From positions 4,018 through 68,017 of the forward strand of contig CAZBJE010000001.1 in the NCBI GenBank assembly GCA_964492125.1: a stretch of 64,000 nucleotides of DNA, given 5' to 3'. This document shows, piece after piece, positions 38,559 through 63,059 of the stretch. A program made the position numbers and the translations under genes. This DNA is from an uncultured Pseudobdellovibrionaceae bacterium (GTDB taxonomy: Bacteria; Bdellovibrionota; FAC87; UBA2466). Position 1 is the first letter of the stretch. Each line of letters opens with the position of its first letter. The notes below the pieces were generated by a model. The model saw only the letters and a program-made list of their open reading frames with translations, made no database searches and was not told the DNA's origin.

Positions 38559-38622
38559 AATGTTTCAGGCACGACGCACACGCGTCGCCCGGCAAAAAAC
38601 TCCACCAACCGGCAGAATTTTC

Positions 38623-39564: not shown

Positions 39565-39588
39565 GGGCTTCCTTTGACTGAAATCGGA

Positions 39589-41907: not shown

Positions 41908-42120
41908 AGGGCGTGCCGAACGGGTCCTGCCCGGGCCCTGCTAATCGAAGAGCTTCTTTCGTTTCTTTCCTGTCAGGGCGTCAAGGTTTTGTCGACAGAA
42001 ACGCCGCGCCGCGATAAAAACACTCCCGGCGCATTGAACTTTTGCTGCGGTGCTTCTGGAATTTCCTAACAGTTCTACCGATAAGCACAGGGAATGGGAC
42101 CCTTTTATCATCAAGTGACT

Positions 42121-44166: not shown

Positions 44167-44930
44167 TGGATAAAAAAATCGCCAACAACATCATCGTCGG
44201 CATCATGGTGGCGCTGGGCTTTGTGGCTTTCGTTTTCGTCTTGTTTAACATAGGCGGCGGCGGGGTTCTTCAATCTCAGTTCACGCTGTATGCGACTTTT
44301 ACTCACGTGAAAGGCCTGCATATGGGCTCCGAAGTTTCCTTGGCTGGCTTGCGAATCGGGGTGGTGAAGAAGATCACGGTGGCCAACGACAAGAACAAAG
44401 ATTTGATCGTGGAATTATCGCTGGCCCGCACGGCGCAAGAATATATTCGTAAAGACTCGGTCGCCGAAATCCGTACGGCCGGGGTGTTGGGTGACAAATA
44501 CATTGAAATCAGCTTTGGATCCACGGATTCACCGGTCCTCAAACACGGCGACGCTATTACCTCGTTGGAAGCCGAGGATATGTTTTCTCAAGGCGGCAAG
44601 CTAATGGGGGGGCTATCCAAAAAGTTCTCCGACGGCGGCGATTTCGACAGCATGATGCGCAACCTGAACACGGTGGCAAAGAATTTGGCCACGATTACCA
44701 CCGAATTCCGGCAGGAAAAGAGTGCGGAGAAAATGGGCAAGGCGGTTTCGTCTCTGCAAGCCATTCTAGCCAAGGTAGAAAAAGGCGAAGGTACTCTGGG
44801 TGGGTTGATTACGGATCCGACGGTTTACGAGGATTTGAAGTCGATCACGGGCGGCGCGAAGCGTAGCGCTATTTTGCAGTATTTCATGAAACAGTTCATC
44901 AGCGACGGCAAAAAGGCCCAGCCAGAGTAG
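44166..44930 (+). CDS. mlaD: MCE-domain protein MlaD
   Basis: N-terminal TM anchor then MCE domain (GLHMGSEVSLAGLRIGVVKKI); directly follows mlaF. Confidence 0.75.
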   Translation: MDKKIANNIIVGIMVALGFVAFVFVLFNIGGGGVLQSQFTLYATFTHVKGLHMGSEVSLAGLRIGVVKKITVANDKNKDLIVELSLARTAQEYIRKDSVAEIRTAGVLGDKYIEISFGSTDSPVLKHGDAITSLEAEDMFSQGGKLMGGLSKKFSDGGDFDSMMRNLNTVAKNLATITTEFRQEKSAEKMGKAVSSLQAILAKVEKGEGTLGGLITDPTVYEDLKSITGGAKRSAILQYFMKQFISDGKKAQPE

Positions 44931-44951
44931 TCGCGGATCCCGCTCCAACCT

Positions 44952-46313
44952 CTAGTTGGTAATCCGCAAACCTTTGCGCTTGAGCTTTTCAACCAAGGTC
45001 GTCCGGTTCAAATTCAGTAGGGTCGCGGCTTTGTTCTTATTCCCCTCGGTCTTCTGCAGGGCCTGCAAAATCAGCTCGTTCTCAAACTCATTCACCGCAT
45101 CGTTAAAATCCAATCCATCATCGGGCAATGCGACACTCGCCACGAAACGGTCCAGGCGCACATTGGCAAAGTAGGCCGACGGGAAGTCCTTCAATTCAAT
45201 CACGCCGTTGTCGCGCTTGAGCACCAAAACCCGTTCCATCAGGTTTTCCAACTCCCGCACATTGCCGGGCCAGTGGTACTGCATGAGCGTCTTCATGGCA
45301 TCTTCGGAAATGCCCCGCATAGGTTTGTTCTGCAAGTCGGCAAACCGACGCAAGAAACTGGAAACCAGCAGCGGAATATCGGATTTTCTCTGGCGCAAGG
45401 GCGGCAGGAAAACCGGGATTACGTTGAGGCGATAGTAGAGATCCTGGCGAAACTTTTTCTCGCTGACCGCAACTTCAAGGTCCTGATTGGTGGCCGCAAT
45501 AATGCGAGCATCCAACGTTTGGCTATGGGCGCTACCGACCGGATCGAATTCGCGCATTTGGATCGCACGCAGCAGTTTGGCCTGAAGATCGAACGGCAAA
45601 TCGCTAATTTCGTCGAGAAAGAGCGTGCCGTTGCCGGCCAGCTGAAAACGGCCCAGCCGGTTTTGCACGGCGCCGGTGAAGGCCCCTTTCACGTGACCAA
45701 AAAGTTCACTCTCCAGCAAACTAGGCGGAATCGCGCCACAGTTGATCGCAACCCAAGGATTTTTACGCCTTTGGCTTACGTCGTGGAGCGAACGCGCCAC
45801 CACTTCCTTACCCGTTCCGCTTTCCCCGGTGATGAGGATGGTGGAATCCGTGTCTTTGATACTCAATATCAATCGGAAAATTTCCCGCATCCGCGGATGC
45901 CGGCCCACGAAATGGGGAAACGGAGAGTCCGCCATATCGTCGTCATCGGCTTCGGGACAAGTTTGGGCAAGCAATTGGGCCACGCGGGGGCCAAGCGAAC
46001 TAGCATCCGCGTCGTGCACCCAGAAATCGGAGGCGCCGGAACGGATCGCGGCGACGATCAGCGCGGGATGGCCCACCGAACTGGTGGCAATAATGCCGGA
46101 CCAAGGGCGAAGGTTTTTTAAGGTCTGAAGGTGAGAGACATCGGCGTCATTCTCCACGGACCAAAGGCAAACGTGGAAAAGCTGCTTTTTAACCAACGCC
46201 AAAGCATCCTCGGCATTGGAAGAGGCAACAACCCAATAGTGCTTCTTTTCAAGCAACTCTTTGTACGCATTGCAGCGGACAGAGTCCGGCTCGAAGATTA
46301 GAACACGATTCAT
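44952..46313 (-). CDS. sigma54-dependent regulator with atypical (possibly non-phosphorylatable, FleQ-like) receiver domain
   Basis: N-terminal REC-like fold but no Asp at the canonical acceptor position (HVCLWSV); AAA+ sigma54 domain (GESGTGKE, GAFTGA, GNVREL) and C-terminal HTH. Confidence 0.75.
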   Translation of the reverse strand: MNRVLIFEPDSVRCNAYKELLEKKHYWVVASSNAEDALALVKKQLFHVCLWSVENDADVSHLQTLKNLRPWSGIIATSSVGHPALIVAAIRSGASDFWVHDADASSLGPRVAQLLAQTCPEADDDDMADSPFPHFVGRHPRMREIFRLILSIKDTDSTILITGESGTGKEVVARSLHDVSQRRKNPWVAINCGAIPPSLLESELFGHVKGAFTGAVQNRLGRFQLAGNGTLFLDEISDLPFDLQAKLLRAIQMREFDPVGSAHSQTLDARIIAATNQDLEVAVSEKKFRQDLYYRLNVIPVFLPPLRQRKSDIPLLVSSFLRRFADLQNKPMRGISEDAMKTLMQYHWPGNVRELENLMERVLVLKRDNGVIELKDFPSAYFANVRLDRFVASVALPDDGLDFNDAVNEFENELILQALQKTEGNKNKAATLLNLNRTTLVEKLKRKGLRITN

Positions 46314-46415
46314 CCCGCTCCCCAGACTCGAGGTCGTTTACCCTGTACTGATTTTGAATTTAAATTGTAATGAAGGAACGCTTACCCTTTCAGAATAAGG
46401 CTCACAGGAAAAAAT

Positions 46416-46429
46416 GTCAATTAATTGAC
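46416..46429. promoter_or_regulatory. perfect 14-bp palindrome GTCAATTAATTGAC in divergent promoter region
   Basis: Read directly, in AT-rich region between the sigma54 regulator gene and thiL; a second short palindrome AATTTAAATT lies at about 46346-46355. Confidence 0.3.
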
Positions 46430-46490
46430 CCTAATCTCCGACGATAAAACGAAGGGCTCTCTTATTTGAAATGATAAACTGGGCGTACCG

Positions 46491-47477
46491 ATGAAAAACA
46501 AAATCAATCTTCGACTGGCGACCCAGGCAGCTTTGGAACCTTTGCGTGCGGCAGGAAGTGCACCCCCAGCCGTATTGGGGCTAGCCAAGGCCGGCCAATT
46601 GGTTTCGATGCGCCACGATATTGAAGGCGTGCATTTTGATTCTGCTTTTGTGACGCCGTACGACTTGGGGCGTAAGACATTGGCAGTGGCGCTCTTCGAA
46701 TTGGTGGGCAGCGGGGTCGTTCCGCGTCGCGTGCAGTTGACCACCGGGGTAAATCAAGCAACCACCGAGACTTTTTTAGATGAAGTGTTTCGTGGGTTTA
46801 AGAAAGTGGCGGATGAATTCGAAATCGAACTCGGTTTTGGAAATGCGTTTCACTCCCCTACCTGTTTTTTCATGAGCGTGCTCACCGTAAGCGATCGACG
46901 CCCGGCACTACCCCAGGCCAAAGCCGGCGATATCCTAGCAGTCACCGGCAAAGTAGGCGCCGCCGCCGCAGGCCTGAATGTGTTACGCCGGTTTGGTTGG
47001 CCAGCCGTAAAAGATTACTCGGAAGTAGTGAAGGCCCACTTGTGCCCCCAGCCGCCACTCGAAATGAGCTTGGCGTTGGCCAAAGCCAAATCGATCACTT
47101 CAATGACGCCCGGCATCGACGGGGCCTCAGCGGATCTGCATCGGCTTTGTGAGATGACGGGGCTGGGCATCCACTTGGACGAGGCCTCATTGCCCGTTTC
47201 TGAAGAAACCACCAAGGTAGCAGGGCTACTGGGGTCCAACCCCCGTCGCTGGGCACTCTTCGGCGGCGAAGACTACGGAATGTTTTTGACGGTGCCGGCG
47301 AAGAATTGGAAAGCGGTTCAGGCAAAGTGCCACAAAGCCGGCACCCCGCTCACTGCCGTTGGGGAATTGCGGCCCAAAGCCTACTCCATTCAAATGCAAA
47401 ATATCGAAGGCGAAAAAATTCGCCTTGCGAACCGCAGTTGGAACCCGCTGGTACGCCGGCGCATTTCGAAAAACTAG
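46491..47477 (+). CDS. thiL: thiamine-monophosphate kinase (PurM/AIR-synthase-related fold)
   Basis: PurM-like N and C domains; C-terminal RWALFGGEDYGMFLTVP matches ThiL RWALSGGEDYELCFTVP. Confidence 0.65.
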   Translation: MKNKINLRLATQAALEPLRAAGSAPPAVLGLAKAGQLVSMRHDIEGVHFDSAFVTPYDLGRKTLAVALFELVGSGVVPRRVQLTTGVNQATTETFLDEVFRGFKKVADEFEIELGFGNAFHSPTCFFMSVLTVSDRRPALPQAKAGDILAVTGKVGAAAAGLNVLRRFGWPAVKDYSEVVKAHLCPQPPLEMSLALAKAKSITSMTPGIDGASADLHRLCEMTGLGIHLDEASLPVSEETTKVAGLLGSNPRRWALFGGEDYGMFLTVPAKNWKAVQAKCHKAGTPLTAVGELRPKAYSIQMQNIEGEKIRLANRSWNPLVRRRISKN

Positions 47478-48133
47478 CCCAAAATATCTTCGTGAAAAGC
47501 GCCGAATTGGCGAGTGGGGTGCCTGAGTTGGATCTCCAAAATCCAGCGTTGCGCCGCCGGAGCGAAGTTGAGCGATTCCAAATTTCCGCGGTGGTAGAGC
47601 ACGTGCGGAAAATCTGCGATACGGTGACCGCTGGCACCTCGCAAAATAAATTCCCACCCCATAGCTTTCGCTTCGGCAGTGGCAAAAGCATAAAGCGCTC
47701 GCCCGCTTACCCCAAGATCCGCCCAATGATCGCGGACCCGCTTAAAGAGATCGCGCGCCGCTTGTGCGCAACCGAGCATCTCGGGGTCTTCCCCCACGGT
47801 AAACGTGGCACCCACGTCGGCCTCGTACCCATCGAACACGGGCCCGAAATCCAGAAAGAAAATATCGCGAGATTGCAAGCGCACGCCAGGCAAAGAGGTA
47901 TCGGAAAAAGAACGCAACGTATTAACGCCGAAGCGGACATGGGTGCGGTGCCAGAAGCGCTCAGCACCCTTCTCTTTCAAGACCTCCGCCGCGATCTCCC
48001 GGGCTTCAGTTTCCAACATACCCGGCTGCATCCGCGCGGCAATAATCTGAACAGCTTCCCAAGCGCGGGCTTGGGCCGCATCGAGTTTTTGGGGAGAAAA
48101 ATCGGCTTTAACTTTTTCGAGTTCCGGGTGCAT
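47474..48133 (-). CDS. M24-family metallopeptidase-like protein (pita-bread fold, catalytic domain only)
   Basis: 219 aa; metal-ligand pattern DFGPVFDGYEADVGATF as in MetAP/prolidase catalytic domain. Confidence 0.45.
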   Translation of the reverse strand: MHPELEKVKADFSPQKLDAAQARAWEAVQIIAARMQPGMLETEAREIAAEVLKEKGAERFWHRTHVRFGVNTLRSFSDTSLPGVRLQSRDIFFLDFGPVFDGYEADVGATFTVGEDPEMLGCAQAARDLFKRVRDHWADLGVSGRALYAFATAEAKAMGWEFILRGASGHRIADFPHVLYHRGNLESLNFAPAAQRWILEIQLRHPTRQFGAFHEDILG

Positions 48134-48818
48134 CGGAGATCCTCAGAAAGAATCTATCGAATATCTCCGGCAATTCGGCAAGTACCACTTCTTTGAGTTC
48201 CAACCCAGAGGCCGCAAGAACGCCACGCAAATGGGCCGCGGAATGCTGCTCGAAGAGACGCTGGGCGGTGGGGGCGTGACTGAGGTGCCAACGCTCGGGT
48301 TTAACACCACCCAAATCTGTTTGGTAAGGACGGTAGAAACCTTCTTCCGCCATATGCCGATCCAGCCAGTCGTGCAGATTAGAAAACATCCCACCCGGAT
48401 CCACTTCCGCCGGAATCAACTGAACTTGGTACCGCGGGGGCACGGAAAGACGATCGATCACGTCCAAGTCGGTGCCCCAGTGGTGGCGTGAGGCGCCGGG
48501 CAACGCGGACCATTGAAGGATCGCAAACACGATTTGCTTAGGCGTAAGGCGGCCAAAATCTAGTGGATGCCCTTGGGCGTCCAGCAAAGCACGCTGCCCC
48601 GTCGCTTTCTGATTCCAAATGCGCATCTGGGCGTCAAAGCCGCGAAAGGTACTCACGGCCTCCAGTTCGAACCCAGCGCGGAATGCTTTGGCGCGCAGCC
48701 GCTCAAACGGGGCTGCCACTTCGTGGTGAACCAGGAATTTGGAGTCCGGCAAAGGCACCAGATGCGCTTCGGTTTGACCCGTCAGCACCCGTTGATCGTC
48801 GCGAATTTCGGGTTTCAC
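48108..48818 (-). CDS. M15-family D-Ala-D-Ala dipeptidase/carboxypeptidase-like protein (VanX/VanY fold)
   Basis: SxHxxGxAxD-type zinc motif (ASRHHWGTDLDV); 236 aa. Confidence 0.5.
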   Translation of the reverse strand: MKPEIRDDQRVLTGQTEAHLVPLPDSKFLVHHEVAAPFERLRAKAFRAGFELEAVSTFRGFDAQMRIWNQKATGQRALLDAQGHPLDFGRLTPKQIVFAILQWSALPGASRHHWGTDLDVIDRLSVPPRYQVQLIPAEVDPGGMFSNLHDWLDRHMAEEGFYRPYQTDLGGVKPERWHLSHAPTAQRLFEQHSAAHLRGVLAASGLELKEVVLAELPEIFDRFFLRISDAPGTRKS

Positions 48819-48973
48819 AAGACTAGTGTATCGCGTATTCCCATTGTAATCACAGGGGTTTTCGGGTGCCCTTTTTCGTCACCGTGGCTAGCAAAACAAT
48901 GTCGAATTGTTTCCAGCAATAACTGCCTCAATCACTCCCAAGCCTAGTTCCCGACGCCGGGCCAGTGGCATAG

Positions 48974-49465
<492 letters not shown>

Positions 49466-49505
49466 AGCCTTTCAATATTACCGACCCCGCGGGTCGGAGG
49501 GCGCG

Positions 49506-50006
49506 TTAGATACGCATCGCCACTCCGACCTGCGGGTAGAAGGTAACGTTTAGGCCGAAAAGTCCGACGTTCGTGCGAAAGAAAAGATCCACGCTCTGAG
49601 TGAGCATGAATTCAAAGCCCGGGTTGATCAGCAGCATAAACTCCACGAGCTTATTGCCGTTTCCAAAACCCAACACAATCCCCATACCCATTCCCAATGT
49701 CGGCACGATTGTCCGACTCATCGGGAATCGTTCGTAGGCCATCACAACGGCCGGAACCAAAAATCCCACGCCTGGCGCAGTTTGAACAAAAAATCCTGAA
49801 TCAAGCCCGAAATAGAGATCGCGTCTCGATTTGATCAAGTTGAAGGATCCCGAGAGCCCGACCCCCGGGGCGCTCATAGATCCTGCCACAATAAACCCGG
49901 GCCCTACATGTCCCACTCGCGATGCACCTGAAGCTCCGCCAGCGGCGAAGGCCGGCAAAGCCCATAGAAGCGCCAGTGCGCCGACGACAGCTACCCGATA
50001 TCTCAT
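49506..50006 (-). CDS. putative small outer-membrane/secreted protein
   Basis: Start set at internal ATG (MRYRVAVVGALALLWALPAFAAGG signal); Gly-rich amphipathic strands; longer ORF-track version overlaps the divergent GATase gene. Confidence 0.35.
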   Translation of the reverse strand: MRYRVAVVGALALLWALPAFAAGGASGASRVGHVGPGFIVAGSMSAPGVGLSGSFNLIKSRRDLYFGLDSGFFVQTAPGVGFLVPAVVMAYERFPMSRTIVPTLGMGMGIVLGFGNGNKLVEFMLLINPGFEFMLTQSVDLFFRTNVGLFGLNVTFYPQVGVAMRI

Positions 50007-50096
50007 GCTAAGATCTTTCAGCCGGCGTCCGAAGCCGTCAACGCTTTTGGCTGGCACCCCCTGACGCAAAGCGATACACCCAATTGAGGAGGCCAC

Positions 50097-50759
50097 TTGA
50101 TTCGACAGATTGCGGTGATTGATCCGGCTGTAAAAACCGCCGAAACAGACTGCTTTAACCGACTGGTCATGGAAAGCCCGCTGCCGCTTACCTACCATTT
50201 GCCCAAGATTGGGGGCATGGATTCCTTGCTCGGCCTCCACGGAGAACTGGCGGGGATTATCGTTTTGGGCAGCGGCAGTAGCGTCAATGACGCCGAACCC
50301 TGGCAGCTGGCCATGAATCAGTGGCTCAAACCCCAGATGGATAAGGGAGTCCCCACCATCGGGCTTTGTTACGGCCATCAACTCATTGCCCACCTTTTCG
50401 GGGCCAAGGTAGATTTTATCTTTGCCGACAAACACAAACACCTGGGCTTCCGCACCGTTTCGCTAAAGGCCAATCGCCTTTGGGACAACCACGCCATGGA
50501 CGGTGAACTGGTGGTATCGCACCGTGAGCAAGTAGTGGATTGCCCACCCGGCTTTGAAATTGTCGGATGCAGTCCCGAAATCAAGGTGGACGCGTTAGCA
50601 CACAAAAGCTTGCCGATCTGGAGTTTCCAGTCGCACCCTGAAAGCACCGCGAGCTTTCTGAAAAGCCAGGGCATCCCTCTGCCCAGCCAGGCGAACCGGC
50701 TCTGCTTCGGGCACGCTATTATGGGAGATTTTTTGAAGTTTGTGGCGGGGCGGACTTAA
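50097..50759 (+). CDS. class I glutamine amidotransferase-like protein
   Basis: Catalytic triad context GLCYGHQ (Cys) and SFQSHPE (His/Glu); 220 aa. Confidence 0.7.
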   Translation: MIRQIAVIDPAVKTAETDCFNRLVMESPLPLTYHLPKIGGMDSLLGLHGELAGIIVLGSGSSVNDAEPWQLAMNQWLKPQMDKGVPTIGLCYGHQLIAHLFGAKVDFIFADKHKHLGFRTVSLKANRLWDNHAMDGELVVSHREQVVDCPPGFEIVGCSPEIKVDALAHKSLPIWSFQSHPESTASFLKSQGIPLPSQANRLCFGHAIMGDFLKFVAGRT

Positions 50760-50768
50760 CGTTCGCCG

Positions 50769-52718
50769 CTACGCAACTTGGTTCGCGGGGCGTGGCTGAG
50801 TTACATCGAATATTTTCTTCTCGACAAAAATTTCATACAACACTGGATCCAACTGCCCGGCGGCTACTTCCCGAGCCAAGATATCCAATGCCTTTTGGGT
50901 AGGCACAGCTTCCTTGTACCAGCGATCAGCGGCAGTGAGCGCATCGAAAATATCGGCGATCGTCATGATTTTTGATTGCAAAGGAATTTCATGCGAGGTC
51001 AAACCGCGCGGGTACCCGCTGCCGTCTAGTTTTTCATGGTGGCAGTAGGCAATCTCCGGCAGATGGCGGAAATCCTTCGTCCACGGGATCATTTTCAAAA
51101 ATTGGTACGTGTGGCGAACATGCGACTCAATTTCAAGCCGTTCGCTATCAGTGAGCGATCCCTGGGCGACGGAGAGCGCGTGGTACTCTTCCTCGGTAAG
51201 AACGGAAATCGGTGTACCGTCGGGTAAGAGCATTTGCTCGTGACGAATGCGTTCCAACCCGGCTTTGTTTTCTTTTTTGAGCACGTTCGGCTCATTGGCC
51301 GCAATAATGACGGCCCAATAATATTCGATTTCTTCCAGGCGCCGTTGGTAATCCTGCTCCGCTTTGGCAGCGTTGCCGCCTTTTAACTGAGTTTCCAAGA
51401 ACGCAATTTTAGCGGCGGCCTTACAAATTTTGACACGTTCTTTCACGGCTTCGAGTTGGTAAGAGTGCAGCTTTTTGGCTTTCACCAGAACTTCTTCGCG
51501 TACGCCGATTTTACCGAAATCGTGTAGCAGAGCCGCGTATTCCAACTCCCGAATTTCCTCTTCTTTAAAACGGACCGACCGATAGATCCCGGTGGTGACA
51601 TCGTTGGTGGCGCGAGCCAAGCCCACGCAGAGTTTCGCAACCCGTTCGGAGTGCCCGCCGGTGCTGGGATCGCGTGCTTCAATCGCGGTAATCGAGGCTT
51701 TGATGAAGCCTTCGAATAGGCGTTGAATATCGGCGTATAAATCGAGGTTCTCCAAGCAGATTGCGGCTTGGGTAGCAAATGAGGAGAGCAGGCTCTCGTC
51801 CCCAATTTCAAACGAGCAAATGGGGCTCGCAGAATCATGGGCATCTTCTTTTTTATTGGCCAATTGCAAAACGGCGGTAATTTCATTGCGACCGTTTTTC
51901 AGCGGAACCGTCAAAACCGAGCGTGTGGCTGACGTACCGGAGTAATCCACCGTCTTCTGCCACTGTGGCACAGTGAGGGGCACGAGCTTTTCAATGTCGG
52001 AAATATTGGAGGACTTGGCGGTCATCGCGACGTAACCGCAAACGCTTGTCTCAACCACCTTGAGCATTTGCTCGGTGAAATGGACTTCTTTCCCCCGCTC
52101 GACTGAAATCTTGATCCGGAAATAGAGTTCGCCATCCACTTCCTGGATCATGTACAGGGTGCCGCCCTCGGCGCCCGTGAGATCCAAACTGCGACGCAGA
52201 ATAGTGGCAAGCAATCGCTGAGGATTGCGCTCCGCCGACAAATCGATGAAAATTTCGTTCAGCTGCTCGAGAGTGCGGCGATCGACTCCGGGCTTGCTGG
52301 TGTCTTCCGCCCGTACCAATTGGCGCACAGCACGTAGCAAGTGAAACGCGAGATCGCGTTTCGCATCCCGATCGGAGAGCACTTCTAATAGCTCCACAAA
52401 ACCCGAACGCTGCGAAAGAAACTCCGAGGGCTTTTCGGCCACCACCACCAAGCCGTAGCTGAGCGAGTTGTCATCGCGCAACCGCCGTTTGAAGAGTTCC
52501 AAAACAGCCAAAAAATGCTCTGCCGAAACCAGAACAATCAGACGGAGTTTTTCCGTGCGCGCCGTTTCCAAAGCCGCCAACAATTCGTCATTCACCTTGG
52601 TTTGGACCGTGCGCCAATCAGGCGGAAACGCCAAACCCTCGGTCAGGGCCGACAGGTGAACGAGGAAGAGGGACTTTTTGGAATGAATGCCTAAGGAGCC
52701 AAGCATGCGAGACCTCAA
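50769..52718 (-). CDS. multi-domain signalling protein with GAF-like region and C-terminal HD-GYP phosphodiesterase domain
   Basis: HD motif AALLHDFGK, metal-ligand HHEKLDGSGYPRGL (HD-GYP signature GYP); 649 aa. Confidence 0.75.
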   Translation of the reverse strand: MRSRMLGSLGIHSKKSLFLVHLSALTEGLAFPPDWRTVQTKVNDELLAALETARTEKLRLIVLVSAEHFLAVLELFKRRLRDDNSLSYGLVVVAEKPSEFLSQRSGFVELLEVLSDRDAKRDLAFHLLRAVRQLVRAEDTSKPGVDRRTLEQLNEIFIDLSAERNPQRLLATILRRSLDLTGAEGGTLYMIQEVDGELYFRIKISVERGKEVHFTEQMLKVVETSVCGYVAMTAKSSNISDIEKLVPLTVPQWQKTVDYSGTSATRSVLTVPLKNGRNEITAVLQLANKKEDAHDSASPICSFEIGDESLLSSFATQAAICLENLDLYADIQRLFEGFIKASITAIEARDPSTGGHSERVAKLCVGLARATNDVTTGIYRSVRFKEEEIRELEYAALLHDFGKIGVREEVLVKAKKLHSYQLEAVKERVKICKAAAKIAFLETQLKGGNAAKAEQDYQRRLEEIEYYWAVIIAANEPNVLKKENKAGLERIRHEQMLLPDGTPISVLTEEEYHALSVAQGSLTDSERLEIESHVRHTYQFLKMIPWTKDFRHLPEIAYCHHEKLDGSGYPRGLTSHEIPLQSKIMTIADIFDALTAADRWYKEAVPTQKALDILAREVAAGQLDPVLYEIFVEKKIFDVTQPRPANQVA

Positions 52719-52998: not shown

Positions 52999-55080
52999 TT
53001 AGTAGCCGCCTTGAAGGCGTTCGATTTTATCTTTCCACCGATTCTCAACCACGCCCCGAATGAGTTTATTCTCGGGCTTGGACAAGTCCGGGTCGTTTAG
53101 GAGCAGAGCCACGGCCTCTTCGCGCGCCTTCCCCAACAACGCTCCATCCTGGACGATATGCCCTGCCCTAAATCCCGGCAGGCCACTCTGGTGCGTTCCC
53201 AAGAATTCCCCGGGGCCGCGGAACTTCAGGTCTTCTTCTGCGATCTCAAACCCGTCTTCACTTTGCTCCATGATTCGCAAACGCGGCGGCACGCTGTCTT
53301 CCACCATCAGAATACACTCGGAGGGTAATTCACCCCGCCCTACCCGTCCACGCAACTGGTGTAGCTGCGAAAGTCCCAAACGCTCGGGGTGTTCAATCAC
53401 CATCAAAGTCGCATTGGCGACGTCGATACCCACTTCGATTACAGTGGTGGAAACGAGCATGCGGTATTTTCCGGCCTTGAAGTCGGACAGAATCAGGTCC
53501 TTCTCCTCCGGCTTCATCCGCCCGTGCAGCAAGGCCACCGAGAACTCTGGGAAAACTTCCTTACTCAGTGCCTGGTGCATTCGGGTGGCAGATTTAAGAT
53601 CCAGCTTTTCGGAATCCTCGACCAACGGATAAATGAAGTAGACCTGCTCGCCGCGTTTGAGAAATCCGCGGATTTTTGAATACAGAGTGGGCCGATCTTT
53701 CTCGCGCAAGATACGGGTGACAATCGGTTTGCGATTGGCCGGCTTCTCCCGGATCCAAGTAAGATCCAGATCACCGTAGATGGTCAGAGCGAGTGTCCGA
53801 GGAATGGGAGTGGCAGTCATCATCAGCAAGTGAGGCACGCCGTGCACTGACTTGCGCATCAATTCACCCCGCTGCTCCACTCCAAAACGGTGTTGCTCAT
53901 CGACAATCACCAGTCCCAAATCTTTAAACTTCACCCGCTCCTGAAAAAGCGCATGCGTGCCGATGACTACCTTCGCAAAACCACTTTCGACCACTTGGCG
54001 GTATTCCAACTGCGAAGCTGTCTCCTGAGAAAATAAAACGCAGGGAACTCCAAGCGGCGCCAGAAGCTTTTCGGCGGTGCGCAGGTGCTGCTGGGCCAAG
54101 ATTTCGGTAGGAGCCATGATAGCGGTTTGCACGCCCTGGCTGGCAGCCACGCAGGCCGCAGCTAAGGCTACGACGGTTTTCCCCGATCCCACGTCGCCTT
54201 GAATCAGCCGGGTCATCGATTGCGATTTGGCCATGTCGCTTACAATGGCGGCGACGGCAGCTTTCTGATCGCCGGTCAAATCAAAGGGCAATCCGGCATT
54301 GAATTTGGGCAAAAGGTTTTTGACGTCGATAAGCGGACGCGCTTTTTCCTTCTTGCGCAGTTCTTTTTTCAGACCCAAACCCAGCTGCAGCACGAAAAAT
54401 TCTTCAAAGGCAATCCGTCGAAAGGGAGCCTCTTGGCGACCTTCCTCGGGAAAGTCTTTGGGAAAATGCAGCGCCACGAAACTCTCCCGCAGCGAGGGAA
54501 GCTTGAGGCGACCGCGCATATCTTCAGACAGCGGTTCGTCCAGTTCACCCAAAGACTCTTTAAGAACCTGGGCCATTATCCGGCGCACTGTTTTTTGGTG
54601 CAGCCCTTCGGTCTCGCTGTAAATCGGGACTACCCGCCCAAAGTGATAGGAGGGAATCGGCCGGCCGTCTTGCGTTTCTTTGACCACTTCATAATCGGGG
54701 TGAGTCATGCGCGCAAAGCCGCCAAAGAAAGTCACTTCGCCGTGCACCAGCACCTGCTTGCCGTCGGCAAAATCTTCCTTCAACGAGGGAAAAGAGCGGA
54801 ACCAAAACAGGCGAATTCCACCGGTTGGGTCGAGACCCGTCACTTCAAAACGGGCAGTGCGGCCCTGGCGGGCTTCTCGCCCCCCCTTACAGGTGATCAT
54901 CAGAGTAGCCGTCTGGCCAGCGACGAGATCTTTTATGGGAGTGAGCTTACGGCGATCTTCGTACGCACGCGGCAAGAAATACAGCGCGTCTTCAACCGTA
55001 CGGATGCCTTTTTTGGACAGGAGCCGCGCCGCTTGCGGACCGACGTATTTGATCGTTCCAATAGGCGCGGAGAGGTCCAC
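52999..55080 (-). CDS. recG: ATP-dependent DNA helicase RecG
   Basis: 693 aa; wedge domain then SF2 helicase motifs (DVGSGKT, DEQHRFG, TATPIPRT). Confidence 0.9.
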   Translation of the reverse strand: MDLSAPIGTIKYVGPQAARLLSKKGIRTVEDALYFLPRAYEDRRKLTPIKDLVAGQTATLMITCKGGREARQGRTARFEVTGLDPTGGIRLFWFRSFPSLKEDFADGKQVLVHGEVTFFGGFARMTHPDYEVVKETQDGRPIPSYHFGRVVPIYSETEGLHQKTVRRIMAQVLKESLGELDEPLSEDMRGRLKLPSLRESFVALHFPKDFPEEGRQEAPFRRIAFEEFFVLQLGLGLKKELRKKEKARPLIDVKNLLPKFNAGLPFDLTGDQKAAVAAIVSDMAKSQSMTRLIQGDVGSGKTVVALAAACVAASQGVQTAIMAPTEILAQQHLRTAEKLLAPLGVPCVLFSQETASQLEYRQVVESGFAKVVIGTHALFQERVKFKDLGLVIVDEQHRFGVEQRGELMRKSVHGVPHLLMMTATPIPRTLALTIYGDLDLTWIREKPANRKPIVTRILREKDRPTLYSKIRGFLKRGEQVYFIYPLVEDSEKLDLKSATRMHQALSKEVFPEFSVALLHGRMKPEEKDLILSDFKAGKYRMLVSTTVIEVGIDVANATLMVIEHPERLGLSQLHQLRGRVGRGELPSECILMVEDSVPPRLRIMEQSEDGFEIAEEDLKFRGPGEFLGTHQSGLPGFRAGHIVQDGALLGKAREEAVALLLNDPDLSKPENKLIRGVVENRWKDKIERLQGGY

Positions 55081-55087: not shown

Positions 55088-55561
55088 CTAAACGTATTTT
55101 ACGGACAGGACCTCGTACTCTACTTGGCCCTTCGGGACTCGAACCGTTACGGTATCGCCGGCTTCTTTATTTAGCAACTGGCGCGCGACCGGAGAGTCGA
55201 TGGACAAGCGACCTTCGTGGACATTGGATTCATCCGAACCGACGATCTGAAAAACTTTTTTCTCGTCGCTATCCACGTCGAGCAATTCGACTGTAGCGCC
55301 AAACACAATTTTGGTGGTGTTCAACTCGAGGTAGTTAATTACCTGAGCGCGCGCCAACTTATCGTCGATTTCCTTAATGCGGCCTTCGATGAACGACTGC
55401 TTTTCCTTCGCGGCATCGTACTCCGCGTTTTCGGACAAGTCGCCGTGGGCGCGTGCGGTTGCAATGGCTTCAATCACCCGAGGCCGTTCGACCGTCTTGA
55501 GGTGCTTGATTTCGTCTTCTAACTTTTTCTTACCCTGCGGGGTCATCGGAACCGAACTCAT
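55088..55561 (-). CDS. greA: transcription elongation factor GreA
   Basis: N-terminal coiled-coil with acidic tip (GDLSENAEYDAAKE) and C-terminal FKBP-like domain; 157 aa. Confidence 0.9.
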   Translation of the reverse strand: MSSVPMTPQGKKKLEDEIKHLKTVERPRVIEAIATARAHGDLSENAEYDAAKEKQSFIEGRIKEIDDKLARAQVINYLELNTTKIVFGATVELLDVDSDEKKVFQIVGSDESNVHEGRLSIDSPVARQLLNKEAGDTVTVRVPKGQVEYEVLSVKYV

Positions 55562-58500
55562 CTAAACTCTCTCCTGCAAACAGTGCGTTTCTAGGCTATT
55601 GCGCTTGTACTCCAAAATTGCCTGGGCGCCCGCTCGGGCCGAAGCAATCGTCGTAAAGTAGCACAGGTTGCGCATTAATGTCGCACGGCGTAATTCGTAG
55701 GCCGCCCCGACTTCATGCACTCCCAAGGCAGAGGTGTTTATAACAAGTTGAATTTCATCATTCTTAATGCGGTCGACCACATGGGGCCGTCCCTCATTCA
55801 CTTTATTAACGACCGCGACTTTGAAGCCACGTTCTTCTAAATACGCGCAAGTGCCGCGCGTACCGCAAAGCTCAAAACCGAGATCCAAAAGCTGTTGGGC
55901 AATCGGCAAAAGGGCGGCCTTATCGGCGTCTTTTACGCTCAAAAAGGCCCGCCCTGTGACTGGCAAGCGGAAGCCTGCGCCGATCATCGCCTTGCCGAAC
56001 GCCTCGGCAAAATTCTTACCCACGCCCATTACTTCCCCGGTGGAGCGCATTTCGGGACCGAGCACTATGTCGGTGCCAGGAAAGCGGTTAAAGGGGAATA
56101 CGGCTTCTTTTACATAAACCAGATTCCCGCCCGCCGGCTTAATGGGAAACTCTTTGAGTTTGCGGCCGAGCATGATTTTCATGGCGATCGTGGAGTACGG
56201 CACGCCCCGAGCCTTGCTCGAAAAGGGAACCGTGCGCGACGCACGCGGGTTTACTTCCAAAATGAAAATCTTTCCATTTTCGATAGCAAACTGAATATTG
56301 ATTAGCCCTTTCACATCCAGCGCCAAAGCCATGGCTCTGGTCTGGCGTTCGAGCTCCTGCACGGTTTCGGGGGCGATGGTTTGTACCGGCAACACGCAAG
56401 CAGAGTCACCAGAGTGCACTCCCGCTTCTTGGATTTGCTCCAAGGTACCGCAGATCAAAACGTCGGTACCGTCGCAGACGGCGTCGACGTCCACTTCGAT
56501 GGCATTGTTCAAGAACCGATCGATGAGCAGCGGCATTTCCACGCTCATCTCCACACCCCGTGACAGCCAACGATCAAAATCGCGGGTGTTGTAAAGAATT
56601 TCCATGCCGCCGCCGCCTAGGACGAACGAAGGGCGAACCAGCAGCGGAAAACCGAGCTTCTCGGCGGCTTCGGCAGCCTGCTCCCGACGCGTAACAATCA
56701 AACTATTGGGTTGGCTGATGGCCAAACGGTTGCACAGATCTCGAAATTTATCTCGGTCCTCGGCGATATCAATGGCATCGGCGGAGGTTCCCAAGATGGG
56801 GTAGCCATGCTTGAAAAGTTTACGGCTTAGATTCAGCGGGGTTTGCCCGCCGAAATGCACCACGGTGCCCAGTGCTTTTTCACGGTCGAGAATTTCGGAG
56901 ATATCTTCGAAAAACAGAGGCTCGAAATACAGCTTATCGCTGACATCATAGTCGGTGCTAACCGTCTCGGGGTTGCAGTTGACCATGATCGATTCATAGC
57001 CCTCTTCGCGCAACGCCATGGCCGCACGCACGCAGCAGTAATCAAACTCGATACCCTGCCCAATTCGGTTGGGGCCACCGCCCAAAATGACGACTTTTTT
57101 GCGGCCCGTATCTTTCACCGGGTCGGACGTGGGTTCGTATGTCGAATACAGATACGGGGTTTCGGATTCAAACTCCGCCGCACACGTATCCACCATTTTG
57201 TAGCTAGGGCGAATCTTGAGAGAATGACGGTGGGCACGCACTTGGTCTTCGGTGCTACCGATAAAATGGGCAATACCCGCATCAGAGAAGCCTTTGCGCT
57301 TCCAACCCAGAAGCTCTTTGTGGGGGATCGCGTTTAGCCGCCCCTTCCACTCCGCCATTTTGGATTCGGTTTCGACCAAACGGTGAATTTGGCGCAAGAA
57401 CCAGGGGTCGATCTTAGTAATCGCCGCAATCTCTTCGACGCTTAATCCTTCGCGCATCCCTTGCGCCAGCCAGAGCAAGCGATCGGCCTTGGCGTTCTTG
57501 ATGTAGTTGCGGATGCCATCGACCCAGTTTTGGCCGGAGCGCAGCTTGCGGCGATCCCCAAAGGGTTGAAAGCCCCAAACCTTCGTTTCCAAAGAGCGCA
57601 GTGCTTTCTGCACGGACTCCTGAAAAGTGCGGCCGAAAGCCATGGCTTCGCCGACCGAGCGCATCGACGGCGAAAGCTTCGAATCCGAGCGCGGGAATTT
57701 CTCAAAAGCGAAACGAGGAATCTTGGTCACTACATAGTCGATGCTCGGCTCAAAGCAAGACAGCGTTTTTTTGGTGATGTCGTTGTGAATTTCGTCGAGC
57801 GTGTAACCGATGGCCAACTTAGTAGCGATTTTGGCGATCGGAAAACCGGTGGCCTTAGACGCCAAAGCAGAACTGCGCGATACCCGCGGGTTCATTTCGA
57901 TGGCCACCAAACGACCGGTTTTGGGGCAAACCCCAAATTGCACGTTGGCGCCGCCCGTTTCCACGCCCACTTCGCGGATGATGCGAATCGCGGCATCGCG
58001 CATTTTCTGGTACTCGACGTCGGTAAGAGTTTGGGCCGGAGCAACGGTGATGCTGTCGCCGGTGTGGACTCCCATCGGATCAAAATTTTCGATAGAGCAG
58101 ACAATAACGACGTTGTCTTTGAGATCGCGCACGACCTCGAGCTCGTATTCTTTCCACCCTAGAACGGATTCATCGATCAGCACTTCGCCTACCGGGCTTG
58201 CTTCCAAACCCTTGGCGACCTCGGTGACAAATTCTTCGATGTTATAGGCTACCGAGGCTCCCGTACCGCCCATTGTATAAGAGGGCCGGATAACGCAAGG
58301 AAAGCCGGTCATCTCTACGACCTTCTTGCCTTCATCGATTGATTTAACCGCCCCGCACTTCGGGTATTCCACGCCGCAGCGATCGAGAACGCCCTTGAAT
58401 AAGTCGCGGTTTTCGCCCAACTCGATCGAGCGCACTTTCGCGCCGATGAGCTCTACGCCATATTTTTCTAGTGTGCCTGATTTGGCGAGCTGCATGGCCA

Positions 58501-58792
58501 AGTTCAAAGCGGTCTGGCCGCCCATGGTGGCCAGCATGGCTTGGGGCCGCTCTTTGCGGATAACGTCTTCTACATATTCCGGACGCAAGGGCTCGACGTA
58601 GGTTTTGTCGGCCATTTCCGGGTCGGTCATGATGGTGGCGGGGTTGCTGTTGACCAGCACCACTTCATAGCCCTCTTCCCGCAACGTTTTGCAGGCTTGA
58701 GTTCCCGAATAGTCAAATTCACACGCCTGACCGATTACGATCGGACCCGAGCCCAGGATCAGGATCTTTTTAATGTCTGTACGGCGAGGCAT
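55562..58792 (-). CDS. carB: carbamoyl-phosphate synthase large subunit
   Basis: 1076 aa with two ATP-grasp halves and MGS-like C-terminal domain; N-terminus [33 protein letters not shown] is canonical CarB. Confidence 0.95.
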
Positions 58793-58794
58793 TC

Positions 58795-59469
58795 TTAAAT
58801 TCGACTATTGTCGTCGTAAATCTTCTCAATCGGCATCTGGGGGTAAATGCGGTGCTTTAAGTACATTCCCACCAGCAACCAAAGCCAGGACTGGTACGTA
58901 GCATAGTCCTGAGATTTGCGAAACACGCGTACCTGGGCCTTGATGTACGGGTGGACGGCTTCCATGTGGTACGAAGGCCGGCGCACGAAACTAAAACCCT
59001 TTTTGGGATCAGTGGACCGGCTAATGAGGCGGCCTTCGACGATATCACCGCGCGAAATCCCCAGATAATCATTGGGCGCATTTTTAGGAACTAGGTAGCT
59101 CTTACCGCTATACAGATCCTTCAACTTCAGCCCGGCGTCGCCCGCACGACTCACCGAAAAGAGACTACGCGTATTGCCGCCGTGAATATGGTTCCAGTGG
59201 GAGCGCTCCTCCGCCGTTAAACCGGTCAGCATTTCGGGAAGCTGTTGTTCGAACACACACCAGTCATAGAAAAAGTCCCAGAGGTCTTCGATAAGGTCTG
59301 CGTTATCGGGCTGGGTGAGCGTCAGCCGCAAGCGGGTGTGGAAATCACGCCGCAGCTCCGTGAGGCGTTCTTTCTCCACCGTCTCAATAATACGCCGGAC
59401 TAAAACTTCAAACTCGGGATGGATCATCCCGAATTGCGGCACTGCTTGGTCTTCCATTTGCACAATCAT
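58795..59469 (-). CDS. hypothetical cytoplasmic protein embedded between carA and carB
   Basis: 224-aa ORF with no recognisable motif; start overlaps carA stop and stop abuts carB start (translationally coupled). Confidence 0.5.
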
Positions 59470-60569
59470 CGCAGGAACCCCTTTACGAAGCTTTCAAACA
59501 CGCTGTCGGCATCATGCGGCCCCGGACTGGCTTCCGGGTGGAACTGCACGCTGGAAAAAAGCATCTTCTCGGACGAAAAACCTTCGACGGTACCGTCGTT
59601 TAAACTCACGTGCGCAAGAGCGATATCGCGGCTCTGGAGATCCTCGGCTTTCACCGCAAACCCATGGTTTTGCGACGTGATCAAAATCTTGCCCGTCCGC
59701 AGGTCCTTCACCGGGTGGTTAACGCCGTGGTGACCAAACTTCAGCTTATACGTTTCACATCCCAAGGCCCGCGCCAAGAGCTGGTGTCCCATGCAAATAG
59801 CTTGGATGGGTACTTTGCCAATCAACCCCTGGATCTCGCCCACTGCGCCCGGCACGCCAGCCGGATCGCCGGGTCCATTGGACAGAACCACCGCCACCGG
59901 TTTTTCGGCCAAAACATCTTGGTGTGGGTAATGGTACGGAACGACACGAACCTTGAAGCCGTAGGATTTAAGCGAGCGCAAAATGCCGTACTTCACGCCG
60001 TAGTCGTAAACCACCACGGTGCCAGAGTCGGTGCCCTGGCCGGGGTCGAATTCCCATGGCTTTACGCAGCTCACCTGGCTCACTAATTCCAAACCGTCCA
60101 TGGACGGAATATCGGATAAGAGTTTTGCGGCATACCCTTTGACGTCATTACCAGCCGCTTGGCTCGGAAAAATCACTGCGCGCTGCGCACCTTCGCCACG
60201 CACGATGCGCGTGATTTCCCGGGTATCGACTTCGGCGATGCCGGGGACTCGGCTCTTTAACAACTGCTCGTGGAGCGACCGTTTGGAACGATAATTGGAG
60301 GGCTCGGGTTCGTATTCCCGCGCGACCACTCCTTTTAAATAGAAGTGCGGCGATTCGATATCTTGGTCGTTGAGGCCGTAATTGCCCAAGTGGGGATAAG
60401 TCATCACCACTACTTGGTGCGAATAAGAAGGATCGGTGAAAATTTCTTGGTAACCCGACATGCCGGTATTGAAAACCAGCTCCCCGCCGTTGGAGTGATC
60501 GGAGCCAAAGCCCTGACCGTGGAAAACGTGGCCATTTTCTAGATAAAGAACCGCGTCCCAAGTCGTCAT
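59466..60569 (-). CDS. carA: carbamoyl-phosphate synthase small subunit (glutamine amidotransferase)
   Basis: CarA N-domain plus GATase1 with catalytic Cys (ICMGHQLLA) and His (HPE); 367 aa. Confidence 0.9.
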   Translation of the reverse strand: MTTWDAVLYLENGHVFHGQGFGSDHSNGGELVFNTGMSGYQEIFTDPSYSHQVVVMTYPHLGNYGLNDQDIESPHFYLKGVVAREYEPEPSNYRSKRSLHEQLLKSRVPGIAEVDTREITRIVRGEGAQRAVIFPSQAAGNDVKGYAAKLLSDIPSMDGLELVSQVSCVKPWEFDPGQGTDSGTVVVYDYGVKYGILRSLKSYGFKVRVVPYHYPHQDVLAEKPVAVVLSNGPGDPAGVPGAVGEIQGLIGKVPIQAICMGHQLLARALGCETYKLKFGHHGVNHPVKDLRTGKILITSQNHGFAVKAEDLQSRDIALAHVSLNDGTVEGFSSEKMLFSSVQFHPEASPGPHDADSVFESFVKGFLR

Positions 60570-61870
60570 CGGGTTTCCTTTGAGTCCTCGGAATTATATA
60601 CCACCCGCCCGGCTACGATTGTATAGCGGACTTTCCCCTGCACTTCCCACCCCTCAAACGGGGTGTTGCGGCTCTTGGATCGAAACAGGAGCTTGTCAAT
60701 GCGGTAAGTTTTCTCGGGATCAAAAATGGAGACATCCGCATCCGCGCCTACTTTTAAAGTGCCCTTGGGGATGCCCAATACTTTTGCCGGCTCGGTGGTA
60801 AGTGACGCAATAAGTCGAGAAAGCGCTACGCCGTTTTTCAAACACATGCGGTAGTAAAGGGGGAAGGCGGTTTCCAAGCCCACCATCCCAAATTCGGCCA
60901 AATCGTACTCGACCAGCTTATCCTCGATGGCATGCGGCGCATGATCGGAAGCCACGATGTCGATGGTGCCGTCGGCCAACGCTTCCCGCACCGCGTCCAC
61001 ATCGCGCTGTTCGCGCAGGGGCGGAGCTACTTTGGTATTGGTGTCGTAATTAGCCACCGCATCGTCGGTGAGGTTCAGGTGATGAGGGGTAACTTCCGCG
61101 GTGACCCGCACACCCCGTTTTTTCGCCCAACGAACGAGATCCACACTACCCACCGTCGACAGATGGGCCACATGGATGCGAGCGCCGGTCAGCTCGGCTA
61201 ATAAAATATCGCGGGCCACGATGAGATCTTCGGAGGTGCGAGGAATCCCCCGCAGACCAAAACGGGCTGAGTTAAAACCCTCGTTCATTACGCCCTTGCC
61301 CTTGAGATTTACATCTTCGGCGTGGCTGATGACAGCGAGATCAAACTTTTTGGAATAGTCGAGCGCCTTACGCATCAGGTAGGAATTCATGACGGTTTTA
61401 CCGTCGTCTGATAGCGCGGAAATCCCGGCTTCGTACATCGATCCGATCTCGGCGAGCTCCTCGCCCTTCAGACCCTTGGTAATGGCGCCAATCGGGTAAA
61501 CATTGATCACCGAATCCGCGGCCGCTTTTTGGTGGATGTACGCGGTAATGAAAGCGCTGTCGTTTACAGGATTGGTGTTGGCCATGCAGGCGATGGAGGT
61601 CATGCCTCCCGCCGCCGCGGCCTGAGTGCCGGTAAGAATGGTTTCCTTGTTGGAGGCCCCGGGCTCGCGCAAGTGGGTGTGCATGTCGATCCAACCCGGC
61701 GTCACCACTAACCCCTGGGCTGCCAATACAGGAATGGATTTGTCGACGGGCATTTCGATGCGGCCGACCGCCTTAACTTTACCATTTTCGATCAGCAAGT
61801 CGCCGACAGTATCTAAACCCTGGCTGGGGTCGACCAGTCGTCCGCCCTGAATCAAGATCGATTTACTCAC
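60566..61870 (-). CDS. pyrC: dihydroorotase
   Basis: Amidohydrolase metal motifs (DMHTHLREPG; carboxylated-Lys region; DHAPH); 434 aa; coupled to carA and pyrB. Confidence 0.85.
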   Translation of the reverse strand: MSKSILIQGGRLVDPSQGLDTVGDLLIENGKVKAVGRIEMPVDKSIPVLAAQGLVVTPGWIDMHTHLREPGASNKETILTGTQAAAAGGMTSIACMANTNPVNDSAFITAYIHQKAAADSVINVYPIGAITKGLKGEELAEIGSMYEAGISALSDDGKTVMNSYLMRKALDYSKKFDLAVISHAEDVNLKGKGVMNEGFNSARFGLRGIPRTSEDLIVARDILLAELTGARIHVAHLSTVGSVDLVRWAKKRGVRVTAEVTPHHLNLTDDAVANYDTNTKVAPPLREQRDVDAVREALADGTIDIVASDHAPHAIEDKLVEYDLAEFGMVGLETAFPLYYRMCLKNGVALSRLIASLTTEPAKVLGIPKGTLKVGADADVSIFDPEKTYRIDKLLFRSKSRNTPFEGWEVQGKVRYTIVAGRVVYNSEDSKETR

Positions 61871-62826
61871 TTGCCACCTTCTTTGAGCACTTCGCCGCCA
61901 GTGAGCAAGTGCAGCGCAGCCATGCGAACCACCACGCCATTGGAAACCTGATTCAAAATCACACTGCGCGGTCCGTCGGCTACTTCAGTCGATAGTTCGA
62001 TTCCGCGGTTCATCGGGCCCGGGTGCATGACCAGCACGTCTGGTTTACATAGCGCGGCAACCCGATTGGTCATGCCCCAGTACTTAAGATACTCGCCCTT
62101 AGAGGGTGTTTGACCGGCCTCGAAACGCTCGAACTGGATGCGCAAAAGGATAATGACGTCTTTATCCACGACCGCTTTGTCTAAATCGTAGGAAACTTGG
62201 ACGCCCAGTTTTTCCACCTTGGGGGGAAGCAACGTGGGCGGGCCGCAAACGGTGACGTCCGCGCCCATAGTCTTCAAAAGATAAATATTGGAGCGCGCCA
62301 CTCGGCTATGAGCGATATCGCCGACTATGAGAACTTTTTGGCCCGCGATCTTGCCTTTGAACTCCTCGATGGTCATGGCGTCGAGCAAGGCCTGCGTGGG
62401 GTGTTCGTGAAAACCATCTCCCGCGTTGATGACCGGCACGTGCAAAACCTGGTTGAGAAAGTGGGGCGATCCAGCGGAGGGGTGCCGAAGCACGATGACA
62501 TCGGGTTCCATGGCTTGCAGGGTTTTCGCCGTGTCGTAGAGGGTTTCCCCTTTGCCGGCCGAGCTCCCCTCATTGCCCAGAAAAACAGTATTGGCGCCCA
62601 AACGCTTGGCGGCCAATTCGAACGAGACCCGGGTGCGAGTGCTCGGCTCAAAGAAAAAGAGCACGATGGTTTTGCCTGCCACCGGGGTCTTCAACGGAGT
62701 ATTGCGCCAGTTCTTCTTAAAGAAAAAGGCGGTGTCGAGAATTTTTCGTATTTGGTCGGCGCCGAGATTTTCCGTGCTCAGGATCGAGCGCGTTCCCAGC
62801 GCATTTTCAGAGGGTGGAACTGCCAT
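61867..62826 (-). CDS. pyrB: aspartate carbamoyltransferase catalytic subunit
   Basis: STRTR carbamoyl-phosphate motif and HPTQ/HPLP ATCase motifs; start set at ATG 62826 (track TTG start 62874 gives a non-conserved extension). Confidence 0.9.
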   Translation of the reverse strand: MAVPPSENALGTRSILSTENLGADQIRKILDTAFFFKKNWRNTPLKTPVAGKTIVLFFFEPSTRTRVSFELAAKRLGANTVFLGNEGSSAGKGETLYDTAKTLQAMEPDVIVLRHPSAGSPHFLNQVLHVPVINAGDGFHEHPTQALLDAMTIEEFKGKIAGQKVLIVGDIAHSRVARSNIYLLKTMGADVTVCGPPTLLPPKVEKLGVQVSYDLDKAVVDKDVIILLRIQFERFEAGQTPSKGEYLKYWGMTNRVAALCKPDVLVMHPGPMNRGIELSTEVADGPRSVILNQVSNGVVVRMAALHLLTGGEVLKEGGK

Positions 62827-63059
62827 GTTTGAGCTTTGAGGCGGTACATTATGCGAAACAGCCCTACATTGCAATACTCCCCCCCTTGTCCCTGGAACAC
62901 CCTAGCCCAGGCCGGCCAACAAGGGCTTACCTAGGCCAAACCCCGCGGAACCCCCGCGAGGACCCGATCGTAAGGCATTGATAACGTGGGCCTTTGGGGG
63001 CTGCGGTTGCTTTGCGAGGGCACGTAAGCTATGAGTTTTAGTCTCTTTTTGGAGGTTCG

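Follow-up and report, generated by a model that had tools for sequence, protein, structure and literature searches.

A gene of 224 codons, here designated X, lies between carA and carB in a 64,000-nucleotide (nt) stretch of contig CAZBJE010000001.1 (the window) from an uncultured Pseudobdellovibrionaceae bacterium. X is a genuine gene under strong purifying selection. Based on profile comparisons it is a divergent branch of the Pfam family DUF7986 (PF25948), without a PF25948 hit on record, and its product is tentatively regarded as a non-catalytic partner of carbamoyl-phosphate synthetase (CPSase), primarily of the glutaminase subunit CarA. The latter assignment, to which a probability of about 0.4 is given, is drawn only from conserved linkage and gene order.

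Gene X and its junctions

The open reading frame (ORF) of X occupies positions 58795..59469 on the minus strand, begins with ATG and encodes a protein of approximately 25 kDa. Its start overlaps the stop of carA in the sequence ATGA (59466..59469, minus strand), the 4 nt being common to the carA TGA and the X ATG. By sequence inspection, a Shine-Dalgarno-like AAGGGG (59478..59483, minus strand) was located within the 3' end of carA, 8 nt 5' of the X ATG. The junction with carB, also identified by inspection, reads AGT CGA ATT TAA GA ATG (58790..58803, minus strand), in which the X stop TAA (58795-58797) and the carB ATG (58792-58790) are separated by a spacer of 2 nt. An earlier annotation of this DNA, made by a model from the letters and ORF translations (the sequence-only reading), had described an ORF of 224 amino acids (aa) between carA and carB in the order pyrB-pyrC-carA-X-carB-greA, with its start overlapping the carA stop and its stop abutting the carB start; the coordinates and the Pfam assignments of the neighbours agree with this description.

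No hydrophobic segment was found in X (maximum Kyte-Doolittle 19-aa window, 0.63) and therefore the product is expected to be soluble and cytoplasmic, as that reading had proposed. Identity as a membrane protein was dismissed on the same ground. In a tblastn search of the window, X was present as a single copy.

A scan in which each species was represented by one genome yielded thirty-eight loci of the X subfamily. The majority bear the labels Bdellovibrionota, Pseudobdellovibrionaceae or Bdellovibrionaceae, among them "Bdellovibrio sp. ZAP7"; the remainder carry only the labels "Deltaproteobacteria", "Pseudomonadota" or "bacterium", and one (L038) was binned as Lentzea sp. The nearest relatives of the window's X, with 87-88% identity, are from uncultured Pseudobdellovibrionaceae genomes. 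Divergent pdxS (-) followed by pyrB-pyrC-carA-X-carB-greA-recG was present in all of the 38 loci as far as the flank extends, and a survey of related genomes, which had been suggested as a check, thus shows that carA-X-carB is kept. All of the 34 junctions compared have a carA/X overlap of exactly 4 nt, and carB begins -1 to 15 nt after the X stop (median 4; 33 loci). Coupling on both sides is therefore conserved and is no accident of one genome, and co-translation of X with the CPSase subunits, which had been called almost certain, can be retained at that strength.

The last codons of X also carry a signal for the next gene. Of 36 sequences compared at this place (window 58798-58803 and its equivalent in L001-L035), 25 have AGG as the codon for Arg223, the window's own being CGA; the codon for Ser222 is AGY in all of them. 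In most relatives the final codons AGY AGG ATT also serve as an AGGA ribosome-binding site for carB which, as read from these codons, is a nucleotide-level constraint added onto an invariant protein tail.

The locus binned as Lentzea sp. (L038:1-3600) is at the end of a 64-kb contig assigned to this actinomycete. It carries a C-terminal fragment of X, 75% identical and with a guanine-plus-cytosine (GC) content of 0.61, followed after 5 nt by a GC-rich carB (about 0.70) which shares only 52% identity with that of the window. The contig is probably chimeric or misbinned, rather than evidence of X in Actinomycetota.

Conservation of X

A search of 5.8 billion proteins yielded 154 homologues of approximately 224 aa with 52-100% identity, all of them unnamed or annotated as "hypothetical". 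In a 40-sequence alignment of the X subfamily (A1) the mean column identity is 62%. This alignment contains an invariant 13-residue motif and a C-terminal stretch of 13 residues conserved almost to the last residue. Within the C-terminal tail the amino acids are invariant and the synonymous sites vary, from which it follows that the constraint acts on the protein. In comparison to the nearest relative, the ratio of nonsynonymous to synonymous substitution rates (dN/dS) is approximately 0.03, with dS near saturation, and among close relatives the dN of X does not exceed that of carA. Mean protein distances over 18 genomes were 0.59 for X, 0.53 for CarA, 0.62 for RecG and 0.33 for CarB.

A spurious or spacer ORF is excluded by the purifying selection, by the approximately 150 homologues and by a confident predicted fold (see below). 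Lack of conservation, named in the sequence-only reading as a result that would count against the gene, was not found, given the 154 homologues and the dN/dS value. P0127 (164 aa), a protein from the profile search with A1 described below, has an unrelated N-terminus of 112 residues joined to the final 52 residues of X; this is probably due to a frameshift or a chimeric gene call and not to a domain fusion.

Relationship to DUF7986

Neither X nor its relatives gave a significant match in Pfam (a copy without the PF25948 model), NCBIfam, PHROGs or the sequences of the PDB. Profile searches of the PDB gave nothing below an E value of 0.019, and the match at this value, 2glw_A, spans only the strand region containing the residues GD. 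Identity as a phage or defence gene was dismissed, as there was no PHROG match.

A profile search with A1 against 1.84 billion cluster representatives identified 148 proteins, only nine of which scored below 1e-10; the others have E values of 1e-11 to 1e-3 and are mostly about 205-250 aa long, a few reaching approximately 290 aa. A further homologue search, made with alignment A3, yielded only 9 proteins, none of them named. Many of the relatives from this search have PF25948 on record, for example P0138, P0145 and P0363. No PF25948 is recorded for P0133, P0140 and P0148, and P0147 has a weak hit only. By recorded Pfam hits X itself is outside the family: the entry is empty for all 120 of the 120 X-subfamily proteins listed, including P0001, which is 100% identical. 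Homology over the full length was found by hmmsearch, hhalign and tblastn. Comparison by hhalign of A1 with an alignment of 40 relatives (A2) gave a probability of 99.9% and an E value of 6.3e-32 over 198 columns, and P0138, a Myxococcota-type member, matches X in the window by tblastn at 2.7e-11.

Both groups consist of proteins of about 215-225 aa that are homologous over almost their full length, and in both the gene habitually follows carA. Common positions are an F-x-D-W-x-x-F helix, a GD-x-x-E-x-R-L strand, an H-P after the predicted barrel and an R/K-Y-x-H...I-Y C-terminus. Identity between them is only 24-31%, however, and the X subfamily is much more conserved internally, with invariant motifs and a C-terminal tail of its own. 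They differ also in position: X has carA on one side and carB on the other, whereas the Myxococcota-type gene closes its operon, no carB being found beyond it. The description of X as motif-less, and its treatment as an orphan, must therefore be revised, since the family has invariant motifs and, by hmmsearch and hhalign, a detectable relationship to DUF7986.

Membership of DUF7986 names X without explaining its function, the family being uncharacterised. No paper mentioning DUF7986 was found in the literature searched and nothing was found there on gene X in Bdellovibrio or Myxococcus. Named members of DUF7986 are from Myxococcaceae (Stigmatella, Aggregicoccus and strain GXIMD 01537) and Oligoflexus. 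No fusion to another domain was seen in the longer relatives, whose additional features were limited to N-termini of low complexity and a coiled-coil insertion. The latter, in a 291-aa variant, comprises about 70 residues that probably form a coiled coil and precede the last helix.

Predicted structure

The AlphaFold (AF2) model of X, based on A1, has a predicted local distance difference test score (pLDDT) of 86.7 and a predicted template modelling score (pTM) of 0.83. Helices at residues 18-97 are followed by the strands of a beta-barrel (99-168) resembling an oligonucleotide/oligosaccharide-binding (OB) fold and by C-terminal helices (170-222). The model of P0138, based on alignment A4, scored similarly (pLDDT 86.2, pTM 0.82; helices 11-98, strands 103-165, helices 167-214). 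The two have the same order of elements, namely four or five N-terminal helices, a barrel of five to six strands, two long C-terminal helices and a short one at the end, so that X and this DUF7986 protein have a common predicted architecture. The fold of X is accordingly predicted to be a helical bundle around an OB-like barrel, the predicted structure containing the five strands of an OB barrel. Together with the DUF7986 relationship, this model is what came of the profile and structure search that had been recommended for the 224-aa protein.

Foldseek against the PDB gave a best E value of 0.06 and no match to the whole protein. Across the wide family (A2) the only invariant residues are F59 and Y215, the His-Pro after the barrel being nearly invariant. 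Because very few polar residues are conserved throughout the family, a function in binding or scaffolding is more likely than catalysis. The overall charge of the protein is neutral (median isoelectric point, 7.1), with acidic N-terminal helices and a basic barrel.

These properties bear on one alternative, in which X is a nucleic-acid-binding OB protein with a housekeeping role on DNA or RNA, such as mediating recombination or replication or acting as a nucleoid-associated protein, and in which its position after carA reflects inherited synteny and convenience of co-expression. The closest structural matches of the barrel are nucleic-acid-binding OB folds and the barrel is basic; in addition, HU, RNase_T-family and recG genes occur as neighbours of family members. 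The resemblance to OB-fold binders of single-stranded DNA or RNA (the RecO N-terminal domain, PriB, SSB, RPA, LEF-3 and RuvA domain I) is, however, confined to the barrel, and X matches none of the known OB sequence families (SSB, S1, tRNA_anti-codon, RecO_N) in Pfam or NCBIfam. This alternative is considered unlikely, but deserves to be kept in view.

Gene context of the DUF7986 family

In 69 of 80 Myxococcota-type metagenome loci the order is pyrB-pyrC-carA-DUF7986, with no carB downstream; seven of the other 11 have too little upstream sequence to judge. A complete Myxococcaceae genome has the same order, with DUF7986 at the operon end, followed by a convergent pyruvate kinase gene. Three low-GC lineages (L048, L049 and L051) have pyrB-carA-DUF7986-carB followed by two ATP-binding cassette (ABC) transporter genes, pilD and pilM. 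The order carA-DUF7986-carB was found on two small contigs with P0148, and a GC-rich lineage (L052) has carB-DUF7986-radical SAM-recG. Linkage to CPSase genes, chiefly carA, is the dominant context of DUF7986 and is kept through rearrangements. It is not universal.

Among the remaining arrangements, Oligoflexus (L050:3683-8835) and a similar locus (L045:4712-9718) have HU-Cob_adeno_trans-orf-DUF7986-pilB-pilT-pilC. The unannotated ORF just before DUF7986 in these two loci encodes about 132 aa and overlaps it. The ABC transporter and type IV pilus genes found past carB in the three low-GC loci and the pilus genes of these two loci hint at an old common neighbourhood of DUF7986. The genes for the 291-aa variants are located between an RNase_T-family gene (PF00929) and HU (L043:2248-3123 and L044:3137-4012), with no pyrimidine genes nearby, and a Myxococcota-like subgroup of about 55% identity likewise has no pyr genes nearby. 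On one short Myxococcota-type contig (L073:1-950) DUF7986 is preceded by a pyrC match instead of carA; carA may have been lost or moved in this lineage, or the contig may be an assembly artefact.

The genes lepA and lepB (signal peptidase) are directly 5' of pyrB in both the Myxococcaceae genome (L046:1117-4193) and a low-GC lineage (L049:663-3843). Because this pair is common to the two, part of the pyr/carA/DUF7986 linkage may be ancient inherited synteny.

Possible role of X

Judged by gene anatomy, X would be transcribed together with pyrB-pyrC-carA-carB-greA-recG. Ribosomes ending carA would probably re-initiate at X via the ATGA overlap, and those ending X would probably begin carB a few nucleotides further on; X would thereby be produced in step with both CPSase subunits. 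As a partner of CPSase it could serve as a subunit that assembles or stabilises the enzyme, or as a regulator or adaptor that links it to the pyrimidine pathway. CarA is the most likely partner, since the gene remains beside carA in loci that have no carB downstream. The operon linkage and the anatomy of coupled translation to be expected of a CPSase accessory factor are both present at the X loci, with exceptions elsewhere in the family. A broader proposal, in which DUF7986 including X is a third, non-catalytic component of CPSase in Bdellovibrionota and Myxococcota that docks on CarA and assembles, stabilises or regulates the enzyme, or tethers it to aspartate carbamoyltransferase (ATCase) and dihydroorotase (DHOase) for the channelling of carbamoyl phosphate, is put forward with less assurance, the odds being clearly against it as a whole.

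The sequence-only reading had offered two explanations, a CPSase-associated factor or regulator and a lineage-specific insertion. The former is favoured by the recurrence of CPSase linkage in several arrangements and in two phyla, and stands in a modified form, as the tie is closer to carA than to the carA-carB pair and some relatives are far from car. The latter is contradicted by the recurrence of the linkage in two phyla.

Several observations weigh against a partnership with CPSase. Some DUF7986 genes are far from car, beside HU, an RNase_T-family gene (PF00929) or pilB-pilT-pilC, and where linkage exists, part of it may be the old synteny described above. The barrel finds its closest structural matches among proteins that bind nucleic acids. 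In a comparison of evolutionary rates among the seven operon proteins, covariation of X with CarA is weak, the residual r being 0.08 as against 0.35 for CarB (18 taxa, not significant). CarA and CarB of the window are complete and orthodox, and show no visible gap that X might fill.

Finally, the site may simply tolerate insertions. Probably unrelated ORFs occupy the carA-carB gap in Pseudomonas aeruginosa and Xanthomonas citri (PMC4619228). This is the basis for regarding X as a passenger, either an insertion of unrelated function that the carA-carB junction tolerates or a spacer ORF without function, and the location of some DUF7986 genes elsewhere is in keeping with it. The spacer version has been excluded by the selection, fold and homologues discussed above, the conservation of the gene in both Bdellovibrionota and Myxococcota rules out a recent insertion, and no repeats, transposase or phage family are associated with the gene. 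Overall, a passenger is improbable.

Should X be a partner of CarA, a lineage-specific subunit would have been added to one of the best-studied bacterial enzymes. X is a concrete and testable candidate for a new accessory factor or regulator of pyrimidine synthesis in two predatory phyla; the linkage to CPSase genes provides DUF7986 with its first functional lead, and the family is extended to a branch without a PF25948 record. If the link to CPSase is false, X would still be a widespread protein with a predicted OB fold. The practical consequence today is modest, namely better annotation.

Pyrimidine operon and flanking genes

The seven genes of the string pyrB-pyrC-carA-X-carB-greA-recG are all on the minus strand, and at every junction from pyrB to recG neighbouring genes overlap by at most 4 nt or are separated by at most 7 nt. 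Based on Pfam, pyrB (61867..62826; OTCace) encodes aspartate carbamoyltransferase and pyrC (60566..61870; Amidohydro_1), which has 4-nt overlaps with both pyrB and carA, encodes dihydroorotase. The glutaminase subunit of CPSase is the product of carA (59466..60569; CPSase_sm_chain and GATase; stop TGA), which aligns with E. coli CarA (1bxr_B) at an E value of 1e-88 over residues 6-363, nearly the whole protein. The synthetase subunit is encoded by carB (55562..58792; CPSase_L domains and MGS), which is full length with the MGS-like allosteric domain present. The gene greA (55088..55561; Pfam) abuts the carB stop, while recG (52999..55080; Pfam) is located 7 nt past greA and is the last gene of the string. 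The pdxS gene is upstream of pyrB.

An alignment of eight related leaders identified a promoter-like element, TTGCAA - 17 nt - TAATGT (62846..62874, minus strand), about 20 nt 5' of the pyrB ATG, in which the TTGC and TA...T positions are invariant across the eight. It is a candidate pyrB promoter element, by inference only; a scan for consensus promoters and terminators left it unflagged and gave nothing informative within the operon. The pyrB start in the ORF list, TTG 62874, is itself the first half of the TTGCAA of this element, and from the leader alignment the true start is probably ATG 62826 instead. Because the element is only about 20 nt upstream of this ATG, the pyrB leader is very short; it has no obvious Shine-Dalgarno sequence. 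Scans of the whole window gave 0 Rfam hits and 0 tRNA genes.

The leader has a bearing on another alternative, that X regulates the pyrimidine operon or pathway from within its own target operon, by sensing a nucleotide or metabolite or by binding operon DNA or mRNA. A precedent is PyrR of Bacillus, a regulator encoded within the operon it controls. X is conserved in the pyrB-pyrC-carA operon in two phyla, these X/DUF7986 pyr operons contain no pyrR or pyrI gene, and the small fold is of a binding type. On the other side, X has no phosphoribosyltransferase (PRTase) or known regulator domain and no detected helix-turn-helix or other motif for DNA binding, there is no Rfam element in the window, and a stoichiometric, translationally coupled position is unusual for regulators. 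A leader of about 20 nt past the promoter-like element leaves no room for a PyrR-type attenuator, and a PyrR-like attenuator was rejected on this ground and for want of a PRTase domain and of a PyrR-binding element or Rfam hit. A regulatory role of this kind is thus given little credence.

Beyond recG (window 35641-52718), a protein with GAF and HD/HD_5 domains (HD-GYP-like) is encoded at 50769-52718, followed by two unannotated ORFs (48928-50441). A VanY peptidase, a TPR protein, two sigma-54 activators (44952-46313 and 38623-39564) and FliF (35641-37365) are also encoded in this region.

Comparison with known systems

Carbamoyl-phosphate synthetase is the textbook two-subunit enzyme, and that of E. 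coli works as CarA-CarB alone. Other split amidotransferases have small non-catalytic subunits encoded by genes of the same operon, such as PurS in PurLQS and GatC in GatCAB. Like these, X is a small protein without catalytic motifs whose gene is located beside those for a glutaminase and a synthetase. The likeness is an analogy, as neither PurS nor GatC has any sequence or fold relationship to X, and the parallel is offered as speculation.

With regard to gene order, counterparts have been published. The sequence-only reading had taken carA and carB to be normally adjacent, a statement that needs qualification in view of the exceptions P. aeruginosa and X. citri (PMC4619228). For P. aeruginosa PAO1 the order carA-orf-carB-greA has been reported (Lu, Kwon and Abdelal 1997, as cited in PMC4619228), and X. 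citri has carA-orf-carB-greA-rpfE with an ORF of 444 bp overlapping the 3' end of carA (PMC4619228). As in the window, an ORF between carA and carB overlaps the carA 3' end and greA directly follows carB. The X. citri ORF is, however, 444 bp long compared with 224 codons for X. According to the authors of PMC4619228, the intervening ORFs of P. aeruginosa and X. citri are dissimilar to each other. These ORFs and X are probably independent occupants of the same junction. What is new here is a divergent variant of an uncharacterised family, found in an operon arrangement that has published analogues.
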